Below are positions 48,368 to 52,573 of a stretch of DNA of 63,814 nt, piece after piece; the first letter of the stretch is position 1; every line of letters begins with the position of its first letter. The notes below the pieces were generated by a model. The model was not told the DNA's origin and ran no database searches. It saw only the letters and a program-made list of their open reading frames with translations. A program made the translations under genes and the position numbers. The DNA lies in assembly GCF_033153115.1 (NCBI RefSeq), contig NW_026889781.1:5146001-5209814 (forward strand), in the 5' to 3' direction. The DNA comes from Saccostrea echinata (taxonomy: Eukaryota).

Positions 48368-48996
48368 CTATGCCCAACCTACTGGAAAAATAACTCCTCC
48401 ATTATCATTGACAAAATACTCCATTGCCCCCTGTAAATTATTTAGATAAATGTATTTTCCCAGACTGGAAAGATGAACACCATCCTGACTATACAATTGC
48501 TTTGATTTTCCCACAAACTGGGGATGTCTATCAAGTCCCCCCCCCCCCCCCACAACCCAGTATTTCCTTAGCAGCTGCTCTGTTTATTCTGTTCCGAGCC
48601 TGTTCCATTGCCCTGCTATTTTCCGAGTAACGCCAAGCTATTCTAGGCAATAGAAAGGACCAAATTAATTTGTTGTTCGGAAAAATCGATGCTATTAATC
48701 TCAAATCCCATCTTACCCTATTTAAAAGCTTTTCAGTTTTGATTTGTCCTATATCGCTAGCACCGCAGTGGATAACTATAGCATTTGGAGGACTCTCAAA
48801 CTGTGCTATCCACCTGAGTTTGCAAGCAAGATCAACAAATCGCAATCCCCTATATCCCTGCCACCATATGTCAATCCCTCTTGTCTGAAGTCCTAGGCCC
48901 TGCCCCCCCCCCCCCCCCCCCCCGCTCTGCTAATGGCTGATATTCCCGCATTTCGGACAATTGAAGAACCTACAATCCATACAGAACTTCTTGCTC
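48368..48996 (-). CDS. SGNH/GDSL hydrolase ORF of the Ngaro element (frameshifted at two poly-G tracts; no ATG upstream of block I)
   Basis: VWIVGSSIV (block I Ser), WWQGYRG (block II), VIHCGASDIG (block III-like), DGVHLS (block V D-x-x-H). Preceded by a TTTTACAG acceptor at 48998-48997. Confidence 0.8.
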
Positions 48997-49017
48997 CTGT
49001 AAAAGTTTATAATTTTA

Positions 49018-50012
49018 TTAGCTTTTTTGTGATTTGTGAGGGCAAGTAAGGGGAGATCTGATATAGGTTTGAAAGGCACTAGACCTCCATCTCCCTGCAA
49101 TCTTTATTTCTTCATCTGATAGACTTTTTTCTGCTGCAGCTGTAGCTGCCCCAATTCTAAAGGAATGAGATGTATATAATTTATTATTGTAACCTAACAC
49201 TGCCAAAGCCTGATGAAAATTGATACCTAAATTGAAAATTGAAAACTTTCCGCCAAAGTGACAAAATAGTGGGTCAGGTATTTTTGGACGCATGTTTAAA
49301 TAATTTTTCATGCACTGTACTGGGCATATAATACCCCCATGAACATTCAAAACAAGAGTTACTCCCGTGCCAATCTGATCAGTCTTAGAATACCTTAACA
49401 AGATCTGCAATTTATCACCTTGAATTTGGACATCCTGGATTCCTAATACAGTTTCAGAGTTATTCCCCTTAGATAAAGTTAGCTCCCCCACCCTAAGAAA
49501 GGCAAAATATGCTAAAGTGTAAGCTGCTGAAAACAAAGCAACCTCATAGTTGTTATGACATATATTAGCTAAAACATGAATCAATTGTGCAAGCATATGC
49601 TCGGTCAATGGTAGTCTCCCATCTGCCCTGTTTTTTCTACGCTTAAAACCCTGAAGGAGTTTTGTTACAAGAAATCTATTTGTTGTATCCACTAACTCCT
49701 CAATTTTGCATTTGTACCCAATAGCTGAAATGTAAGCTCGGGCTGTTGCATCAGAATATCTATTTAAAGACAGGTATGCTATAAAGTTTACTAAATGCTC
49801 AGTAGGGGGAGGCCAACTAACTGGCAACTGGGTTTGAACTCTAAATTTTTCAAAGGCAGAAATTCCTGTGATATATGAAGAAGTAGTATTGCTGAATGTG
49901 CTGCATTTAACAATCGAGTGGCCTCACTTCTGAGAACATCATGTGAAACATCGCTGGAATTGGATCTGGGTCCCTTCTGGCTCCTGGAGCAAGGTGTCGA
50001 AAACGATCCCAC
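49018..50012 (-). CDS. Tyrosine recombinase of the Ngaro element (one frameshift near 49830)
   Basis: ORF 49018-49827 contains FLRVGEL, SKTDQ, HSFRIGAAT and GRWRSSAFQTYIR (R..K..H-x-x-R..W..Y catalytic set). The N-terminus lies in ORF 49791-50012. Confidence 0.92.
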
Positions 50013-51520
50013 TGCTCGCGAGAAATTGCATCAGCTATACTGTTATCTTAACCTGCTATATGCTTAGCTTTAAATACTATGTTATATTTCATGACAAGTA
50101 AAACCAGTTTCCTAAACAAATACATTATCCTTTTTGACTTTGGAGACTGCGAATTTAGGATGGCAACTAAAGCTATATTATCAGTTTGAAATTGCACCTT
50201 TTTCCCACTTAAACACTCATGCACCCCACACCATCAGTGACAGCTAGGCACCAATTCTAAGAATGCAATAACCTTATTATAGACCGATTTTCCCAACTAC
50301 TTGGCCATTGGTAATACATCCACTTCCCCAAAAATAAGATCCACATTCCAATCTGATTGAACCCGCACTATCCGTATATAATTGAAGAATCCTGGAATTT
50401 GTCCATTCCTTTTGAGGGAAATAAGATATTCCATTAAAATCATTCAAAAAACTTAACCACATTTCCAGGTCCTGTTTTAGGGCAGCATTAATACGAATAA
50501 AATGCTCGGGATTTGAAATACCTATCAGTGCATCATAAAACCTTCTGTTGAAAGCTCTACCACCCCTGATTGCTTTGCTAAAGAAGTTAAGTTTTCCTAC
50601 TAATGATTCAAAGCTACGAGCCTTAACCTTTTTCCTATCAAGAAGTGCTTCCAGTAAACCCTTCAATTCTATAATTTTCTCTCTAGGAATTCTTGCACAC
50701 ATCTGAACTGTGTCTATCTCTATGCCTAAAAATATTAGACAGGTGACAGGACCCTGAGTTTTCTCTACCGCCAAAGGAACCCCGAATTCTGTGCAAATTG
50801 ACTGAAATGAGCTCATTAAATTAAAACACTTTCCTGAACCTTTACTTCCTGCAAAAATGAAATCATCTAGATAATGGGATAAAGTAGGTAAACCTGACTT
50901 TGCAACTGTAGCCCACTGCAAGAATGTAGAAAACTTTTCAAAGATAGCACAAGATAATGAACATCCCATTGGCAGAAATTTATCGATATAATATTTTCCG
51001 TCAAATTTGAAACCCAACAACTTGAATTCCACAGGATAAATAGTAAGCAATCTGAATGCATTTTTAATATCTACCTTGCCTAGTTCAGCACCCTCACCTA
51101 ACTCTGAAATTATTTCAACCACAGAATCAAAAGAAGAGTATTTACTGAGCATAAATCAGGATCTATAAATGCATTGATACCAAGAGAAGGAGGGTAAGAC
51201 AGATACGTTATCATCCTCCAACCTCCACTTGATTTTGGTACTAAACCTACTGGGGAAATATGTAAATTGAGCATTGGTGGCCTAGAAAATGGACCCATAA
51301 CTCGACCCTCTCTGATTTCCTTGGTAATCTTCTCTTCTAATTGAACTTTGTGTTGATTTGCTGACACTAGATTATTTGAAAAACTAAATATCCTTGGCCC
51401 CGTATAATTTAATCTAAATCCTTTTGATAAGCCATCGATTAACTCCCTAACTCTTTGTCTTATTGGGTATTTGTGTAAATACCTAGATATCCTATCAACC
51501 CTTATTGGTGAATGACCTAG
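49907..51520 (-). CDS. Reverse transcriptase-RNase H of the Ngaro element (frameshifted)
   Basis: SPVGLVPK..GGWRMI, KVDIKNAFRLL, LPMGCSLSC, HYLDDF, FLGIEID, RNase H LYTDSAG and ADAISR motifs across ORFs 51110-51367, 50277-51152 and downstream. Confidence 0.92.
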
Positions 51521-52573
51521 GTCCCAAATTCCTATGCCCTGGGAATCGCATAAGTGGTCTTGTAATGGTGGAGGGTGCTCGTAATCCCCCTTGTCTTGCC
51601 CCTTGAGAGAAGCCGTATCCTGATGGGCGAAGCTGCCGCTGGCTTAAATATGACATATTTCTTTGCGGATTAGTAGAGATTGAACAATTAAACATAGGGC
51701 GCTGACGCCCACATTCTAAACATGCATGCAAATATGGACATGGCCTTCTAATGCAATATCCCTGAAAATTGAAATCATAACATTTGTTTGTCCCATACTG
51801 CCCCGAAATTGAAATCATAACATTTGTTTGCCCCATACTGCCCCGAAATTGAAGAGTATCACGAGTCCCCACCATATAGATCACCCAAAGCTCAGAATCT
51901 ACTACTGCCCATGACCTACAATGTAGCTGGGTCCATAGCCATCTTCAACCTAAATTGTTCATCATATTGCCTCCATCCGATTGATCTCCCTGCCCCAATT
52001 CTAGTGTCATACATGTATTTCAAAATATCTTGACTTTTCCCATTGTGCACTGCAGTAAAGATACTCCTATAAATTAAAAATGCATCAGTTCATTTCTCTA
52101 TTGATACAATTTTTATGCTGGTTTTTGATCTTGAACACAACTGACCATCACTCCCTATGACAAAAACTCTGTCACTTGCACTATCCTCAATGTTAGAATT
52201 TTTCAGTAATAGGGCCAAATCAATATATTTACCTTCAATTATTTTCTGCCTAATTGATGAATTGACATTGTGACCCAGAGAGAACTGCACTGAATTTATT
52301 TGGGTTGGAATGCAGCCTTCCGTGTTAGTAATTGCCCCGATTACATTACCTGGGGGGGGGGGGGTCTAATGAATCTGAATTGACAGTGCTGGCTGTGCTT
52401 GCTGAGGGTGCATGATGTTCGTGAAGTGAAGCGGTTGCCGCCGGCACTACAGGGACTTGGACTTCTGGAACGGCTTCTGCTGATGAAGGCGAACTTGTGC
52501 CCTCACGGTTCCCTTCCTTCCTCCGACGCTTCGGCCTTGCCACCTCTACTTGACCTCTTTTGACCTTCGGCAT
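51495..52573 (-). CDS. Gag-like ORF1 of the Ngaro element (disrupted)
   Basis: MPKVKR..., IRQKIIEGKYIDLALLL, W->stop at 52090, WRQYDEQFR, C-terminal Cys/His finger CYDFNFQGYCIRRPCPYLHACLEC. Broken by a homopolymer frameshift at ~52352-52364 and a 40-bp tandem duplication at ~51767-51850. Confidence 0.8.

Follow-up and report, generated by a model that had tools for sequence, protein, structure and literature searches.

How does a retrotransposon express a last gene that lacks a start codon of its own? The question is raised by a stretch of 63,814 nt from Saccostrea echinata (assembly GCF_033153115.1, contig NW_026889781.1, positions 5,146,001 to 5,209,814), referred to here as the window. A single element lies on its minus strand at 53121-46904; it is a decayed Ngaro retrotransposon with gag, reverse transcriptase/RNase H (RT/RH), tyrosine recombinase (YR) and SGNH hydrolase reading frames and split direct repeats. 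The first-pass annotation of the window proposed that the hydrolase is made as a fusion with the start of Gag, by splicing from a donor within gag to an acceptor just behind the YR frame. The positions given there for the gag ATG, the donor GT, the run of 13 C (C13), the acceptor AG and the YR stop are all correct. We conclude that SGNH-bearing Ngaro elements very probably do make a Gag-SGNH splice. The fusion was found in relatives. The window copy is decayed in every open reading frame (ORF) and so cannot itself yield an intact product; the fusion in this copy, and the use of the exact donor at 52349-52348 in the active ancestor of its family, are what we infer.

The SGNH acceptor and Gag-SGNH fusions in relatives

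In the window copy SGNH starts approximately 50 nt past the YR stop; the acceptor junction reads AACTTTTACAG/GAGCAAGA (slashes mark splice points). The claim that no ATG upstream of block I could start this frame holds, as the sole ATG within 49020-48960, at 48980, is out of frame. Conservation of the acceptor was examined in the source genome (G000, 923 Mb), which contains many related families (871 YR and 614 SGNH candidates, the best 150 of each being scored). The survey took in 121 loci, with some places included twice. Block I was recognisable in 90 (82 by pattern, after removal of one false match, and 8 by hand) and not in 31, and the 90 were grouped into 22 subfamilies.

The phase-1 SGNH acceptor is conserved family-wide. 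A phase-1 YAG lies 5-34 nt upstream of the block-I Trp in all 22 subfamilies, while a YAG in phase 0 or in phase 2 was found in three subfamilies each, and the chance level is 0.16 YAG per random 30-nt window of the same loci. When AGs were ranked by a phase-blind scoring of our own making, the best was in phase 1 in 19 of the 22 (binomial 4e-7; the subfamilies are not independent). The YAG rule is post hoc, written after the sequences had been viewed and a first rule had failed. That first rule, which required an AG-free 12 nt upstream, gave 12 acceptors in phase 1, one in phase 2 and seven without any among 20, and missed the window acceptor itself. In 17 subfamilies the frame leading to block I holds no Met and meets a stop 7-19 codons upstream. 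The spacer between YR and block I ranges from 37 to 203 nt, and all three relative frames occur among the subfamilies.

Fusion proteins were sought with a profile search over 1.84 billion representatives, and the best 150 matches were sorted. Forty-two are proteins of up to 450 aa with at least 40 residues ahead of block I, 88 are short or without the motif and 20 are long. Among the 42, a basic start was seen in 13 (one of which resembles a YR piece), YR motifs in six and other N-termini in 23.

The family nearest to the window element is represented by the P0130 cluster of 11 (six RefSeq models from Crassostrea angulata and Magallana gigas, four Logan proteins and one JGI fragment), with an SGNH domain 84 % identical to that of the window over 114 aa. 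The N-terminus of P0130 and of a second record of this family, P0269, is 41 % identical over 61 aa to the Gag of L007, a genomic copy closely related to the window element. The product predicted for the window copy, MPKVKR...DPPP-G-ARSSV-WIVGSS, thus has a counterpart in these relatives, which read MPKVKK...GLDAAPIP-G-LRCSV-WIVGSS with the junction at the predicted Gly; on the window copy itself no such joint was seen. A read-through form (P0270) departs at the same Gly. P0269 was found on three Logan contigs, the longest of 1308 nt, P0271 on one of 1240 nt and P0272 on one of 933 nt, all too short to contain a 3.3-kb intron.

A second oyster family has Gag (P0291) as isoform X1 and the fusion (P0060) as isoform X2 of a single C. 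angulata locus; the two have residues 1-77 in common and continue as DKQKVW in P0060 and as GMHVSN in P0291. The P0060-type join recurs in the Logan protein P0069 (33 contigs, the longest 1410 nt). For a third family, the donor and acceptor in genomic copy L058 predict SSV/EHYQDIW, and the Saccostrea model P0183 reads VSSI-EHYQDIW. Gag-SGNH proteins on short Logan contigs were found across clusters P0026, P0069, P0088, P0214, P0269, P0274 and P0290. By BLAST, 14 of 95 N-termini matched a Gag start from the source genome, nine of them belonging to the window family; as N-termini evolve fast, the other 81 are not counted as negatives. The 75-aa Gag start of the window copy had no match among the longer proteins in 747 candidates, and metagenome scans with the SGNH of copy L042 and with P0061 gave none that was confirmed.

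Further records touch on the fusion. Mytilus, Ruditapes, Mercenaria and Haliotis have models that resemble the fusion in overall shape. In frog and snake models (P0237, P0254, P0256, P0258, P0246 and P0251) the same SGNH domain follows a long N-terminus of low complexity; one is named 'mucin-1-like' and another 'collagen alpha-2(I)', and they are possibly the same fusion, misannotated. In P0114 the Gag N-terminus of the second family is joined, at the point used by P0060, to unrelated sequence. Together with P0073, P0091 and P0279, P0114 belongs to a group with Gag N-termini joined elsewhere at or near the donor point, in one case to a Cys-rich EGF-like stretch, and chimeric host transcripts may have taken up the gag donor. 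Neither 70 loci drawn from the best 150 of the 614 SGNH candidates nor five further gag-bearing copies included a Gag-SGNH copy without the intron. In P0030, P0074, P0076, P0081 and P0085 a Gag-like N-terminus is continuous with SGNH, in several copies and on ENA contigs of up to 592 kb; these are possibly intron-less retrocopies of spliced RNA acting as non-autonomous elements.

The proposed donor (CAG/GTAATG) lies beside the C13 run at 52364-52352, which throws the window gag out of frame. In L007, which is 93-94 % identical, the C run is shorter, the gag 5' frame is open and the donor is in phase 1 at codon 73, as had been predicted for a shorter homopolymer. The intron from this donor to the SGNH acceptor would be 3353 nt. 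The donor had been described as strong; at 4.0 bits on the scoring matrix used here it is moderate, and it is the highest-scoring one in the gag 5' part.

Counter-evidence and rival explanations

Several observations weigh against a Gag-SGNH splice, most of them concerning the donor. Its GT is present in five of seven aligned, decayed copies and lost in the other two, several subfamilies have weak GT donors only, and the donor position shifts by tens of codons between families. Of 13 gag 5' parts, 10 have their best donor in phase 1, compared with 8 of 12 control stretches (two of 15 gags were left out because their core motif was not located), and synonymous resampling of donor phase gave p = 0.078, which is not significant. 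Of the features whose conservation the first-pass annotation proposed to test, the acceptor and its phase are conserved (22/22); conservation of the donor was not significant. In L007 the acceptor is AAG with one extra base. In five of the 22 subfamilies an in-frame Met lies upstream of SGNH, and one of these is used in a read-through record, P0100 (95 contigs). The predicted joint of 52350 to 48996, for which the first-pass annotation proposed a search, was absent among the contigs listed for each of the four sequencing runs compared, out of six available; only contigs were compared, the G-run was skipped and the RNA status of the runs is a guess, so that this is no verdict on expression. The longest contig (run X1, 4251 nt) is unspliced across donor and acceptor, and one from run X4 across the acceptor. 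The Logan contigs could derive from RNA or DNA runs, and read support for the RefSeq models is not visible.

If the acceptor is real, its usual partner might be a donor in YR or another exon, leaving Gag-SGNH as a minor isoform. YR pieces are indeed joined to the same acceptor in models P0043 (Tegillarca), P0053 and P0097 (Saccostrea), and P0106 and P0109 (Magallana), which also counts against Gag as the partner, and YR motifs were seen in six of the 42 representatives with an N-terminus of 40 or more aa. However, the YR join positions differ between records and the recombinase is cut before its catalytic Tyr; all of those looked up are genome gene models, whereas Gag-SGNH is also found on short Logan contigs. 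We consider this explanation improbable. It is equally improbable that the splice sites are incidental and that SGNH is translated from RNA that is unspliced or initiated internally, either at an upstream Met of its own or through reinitiation behind YR. The five Met-bearing subfamilies, the read-through proteins P0022, P0100, P0086 and P0270 and the unspliced contigs in the runs are in keeping with that, but the remaining 17 subfamilies offer a stop and no Met, the phase-1 YAG is retained in all 22 including the five with a Met, and the N-termini of the read-through proteins resemble a translated T-rich intron.

A splice that is real but unselected or host-driven, whether cryptic or diverting genomic RNA to a non-replicating form, and with a fusion protein that has no role, would account for a donor conserved in neither position nor strength that also joins unrelated sequence (P0114). 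Cryptic splicing would not, however, hold the acceptor phase in 22 of 22 subfamilies whose YR is 33-60 % identical to that of the window, nor preserve the SGNH catalytic triad, and we rate this account marginally lower still. Programmed frameshifting or stop read-through from YR into SGNH, which the closeness of SGNH to the YR stop in the window copy might suggest, has next to no probability. With a variable spacer, in-frame stops between the two and a relative frame of 0, 1 or 2, a shared mechanism of this kind is ruled out. A splice from gag to the SGNH exon remains the preferred explanation.

The element, its leader intron and possible further acceptors

Features of the window element are listed in Table 1. 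On the minus strand the order is A1, gag, RT/RH, YR, SGNH, then B1, A2 and B2, and this arrangement of repeats and ORFs, with SGNH after YR, is Ngaro-like. PAT elements likewise carry split repeats (PMC6681497); the assignment to Ngaro is based on repeats, ORF order and domains. No Pfam match to a methyltransferase, the domain that sets DIRS-like elements apart from Ngaro, was found in six ORFs scanned, a scan that excluded the broken RNase H end. The window gag is 33-39 % identical to the oyster Gag P0116. The YR ORF was recognised by HSFRIG and GRWRS motifs, with a weak Phage_int_SAM_1 match, and its frame stops at 49020-49018. Stops and frameshifts interrupt gag, RT/RH and YR. The SGNH frame is shifted by G21 at 48923-48903 and G15 at 48551-48537, and its block III Asn is replaced by Ser.

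Table 1. Features of the Ngaro element in the window (positions are those of the window; slashes mark splice points)
Feature	Position	Strand	Remarks
Split direct repeat A1, 5' end	52869..53121	-	92.5 % match to A2; contains leader exon and leader-intron donor
5'UTR (untranslated region) intron, 335 nt	52579..52913	-	GT...AG; GAG/GTGGGT ... TTTTTGAG/CGGAAATG
gag ORF	51495..52573	-	ATG at 52573; broken by C13 frameshift, stops and one further shift
Gag 5' part, shared coding exon	52350..52573	-	approximately 73-75 codons; basic start, Ser/Ala/Pro-rich
Splice donor CAG/GTAATG	52344..52352	-	GT at 52349-52348; phase 1 in in-frame copy L007
RT/RNase H frame, broken	49918..51643	-	RVT_1 E 1.6e-9
Probable YR acceptor in RNase H D-x-I-S-R-x-Q-W codons	50011..50035	-	AG at 50013-50012, phase 1
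Tyrosine recombinase ORF, opening without ATG	49018..50011	-	one frameshift near 49.9 kb
SGNH acceptor region: branch-point-like CTAAT, pyrimidine tract, CAG	48997..49025	-	AG at 48998-48997, phase 1
SGNH hydrolase terminal exon	48368..48996	-	two G-run frameshifts
Split direct repeat B1	47855..48276	-	98 % to B2; ATTAAA at 47913
Split direct repeat A2	47607..47860	-	
Split direct repeat B2, 3' end	46904..47325	-	ATTAAA at 46962

The 5'UTR intron and the probable YR acceptor are additions to the first-pass annotation. L007 lacks exactly 52913-52579, the stretch between A1 and the gag ATG, and contig 4 of run X1 departs from the window at 52580, the leader acceptor. Because of these two observations we regard splicing of the window family's RNA, at the leader intron, as shown, with the reservation that a 3-letter repeat at both intron ends makes a plain deletion an alternative. 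It is probable that a spliced transcript returned to the genome as a DNA copy. Past the leader acceptor, the X1 contig continues with 28 letters that are not in the window element and start like repeat B.

Of repeat A1, L007 itself (G000:C1 near 9.678 Mb) retains only 25 nt; the copy terminates with B1, has no A2-B2 and is flanked by a 43-nt direct repeat. It has an internal deletion of 1.2 kb (window 51939-50753) with ends that are not GT-AG, and it is possibly a retrocopy of spliced mRNA. A T-rich tract and an AG 2-5 nt before the gag ATG in L049, L064, L065, L068, L080 and L081 suggest that a leader intron is common among other subfamilies.

The YR frame also opens without an early ATG in most readable subfamilies, directly after the RNase H D-x-I-S-R-x-Q-W codons. 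The Gln of this motif is encoded by CAG in 18 of 20 groups (CAA and AAG in one each), compared with CAG at 29 of 80 Gln codons of RT cores, and the frame after this candidate acceptor runs on into the recombinase. On this sequence evidence we lean slightly towards expression of the ATG-less YR through a phase-1 splice acceptor. At the opening of the RT frame there is a phase-1 AG at 51644-51643, with CAG there in relatives L172 and L175; no single conserved RT/pol site was found across the subfamilies examined. A natural control for splice signals is provided by L071, L073, L076-L079 and L081, YR elements from the same genome in which no SGNH exon is recognisable.

Other repeats were noted. 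A 90-nt piece of repeat A (window 52869-52960) has approximately 30 dispersed matches of 81-98 % in G000, and L159 has A and B repeats without ORFs; together these are possibly a non-autonomous or solo derivative family. Upstream of the Ngaro element, window 53544-54788 contains a palindromic (inverted-repeat) element with an internal 179-nt duplication, and a short high-copy repeat at 53242-53415 has a second copy at 44579-44752.

The enzyme and its proposed expression

The family carries the SGNH blocks, with Ser in block I, Gly in II, Asn in III and Asp-x-x-His in V. Among 14 SGNH sequences, S5, G40, D159 and H162 are invariant and N70 is present in at least 90 %. The whole SGNH exon fits the Lipase_GDSL_2 profile (residues 78-244 of 269), and the best PDB match is 4C1B, the esterase of ZfL2-1 ORF1p (E 6.4e-10). 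A His before block III and a W-S motif are invariant, at positions that match the transposon-specific His and Ser of ZfL2-1. ZfL2-1 ORF1p hydrolyses esters and binds acidic phospholipids, and its esterase is preceded by an arginine-rich motif, a proposed RNA binder (PMC3905857). This CR1/L2 non-LTR (long terminal repeat) protein and the Ngaro fusion share the catalytic triad and a basic peptide ahead of the esterase. However, in ZfL2-1 the basic motif, coiled coil and esterase are in one unspliced ORF1, whereas in Ngaro splicing would supply the basic part from gag, with Gag being produced on its own as well.

Judged by its domains, the fusion product combines an esterase with a basic tail and is not an envelope protein. 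The likeliest reading is a particle-bound lipid-acting protein inside the cell, because the spliced product would rebuild the ZfL2-1 layout from the Gag start. Description of the splice as env-like is apt for the spliced subgenomic RNA, found in relatives and not seen on the window copy, and does not extend to an envelope protein. No fusion glycoprotein with signal peptide and anchor was recognised, the exon being entirely Lipase_GDSL_2/4C1B-like by profile match. As with retroviral env and the ORF3 of LTR elements, the gene at the 3' end has a spliced subgenomic RNA of its own from which pol is removed, and in some retroviruses a few gag codons are likewise joined to env by splicing. Here, by contrast, the element is a YR element without integrase, approximately 75 Gag residues are kept and an esterase is encoded instead of a fusion glycoprotein. 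Bdelloid Vesta LTR elements carry a GDSL-esterase ORF3, and ORF3s are typically expressed from spliced messages (PMC5408684).

The closest described elements are DIRS-53_XT and DIRS-54_XT of Xenopus, Ngaro-like elements with an SGNH of unproven function (PMC9210276). They share the A1 ... B1 A2 B2 repeats and the order gag, RT/RH, YR, then SGNH, but there SGNH is treated as a fourth overlapping ORF (PMC9210276), whereas here it forms the last exon and is joined to the N-terminus of Gag. 'Splic' and 'intron' do not occur in the main text of PMC9210276, and spliced Ngaro RNAs are not described in the portions available of PMC6681497, PMC8547959, PMC9341512 and PMC4495291. No report of a Gag-SGNH splice was found in the literature searched, which did not extend to the first papers on Ngaro, the review by Poulter and Butler, Repbase notes or supplements. 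We regard the splice as a real family-wide feature of a known element, with an expression strategy that is apparently undescribed.

We propose that SGNH-bearing Ngaro elements use alternative splicing of RNA whose transcription would start in repeat A1. The leader intron that precedes the gag ATG can be removed, as its absence from L007 shows, and RNA left unspliced downstream would serve as genome and gag message. Joining the phase-1 donor in the variable gag 5' part to the conserved phase-1 acceptor close behind the YR stop would remove approximately 3.35 kb (the rest of gag, RT/RH and YR). The predicted product of 250-310 aa would consist of a basic low-complexity Gag N-terminus and an SGNH esterase whose Ser-Asp-His triad is intact. 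By analogy with ZfL2-1 ORF1p, the basic tail may tie the esterase to element RNA or the Gag particle, and the esterase may bind or deacylate membrane lipid, aiding particle localisation or nuclear access. The same gag donor would probably feed the ATG-less recombinase too. More tentatively, and with confidence just short of even, one gag donor may serve several phase-1 acceptors (YR, SGNH and perhaps RT), with the shared basic Gag tag loading enzymes into the particle and the esterase acting as a particle-borne lipid-acting factor in the genomic place and expression route of env, a scheme that would reach frogs and squamates.

The function of the Ngaro hydrolase is unproven and expression of downstream ORFs in YR retrotransposons is an open matter (PMC9210276, PMC6681497). 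The fusion provides a real protein sequence for expression and assay. With it, a spliced RNA of the env type would have arisen convergently in elements other than LTR elements, and its layout points to a protein design reached convergently with the ORF1p of LINEs (long interspersed nuclear elements), an esterase with a basic motif. The fusion would also explain the capture of the gag donor into chimeric transcripts, and many 'uncharacterized' mollusc RefSeq genes would be explained as transposon isoforms.

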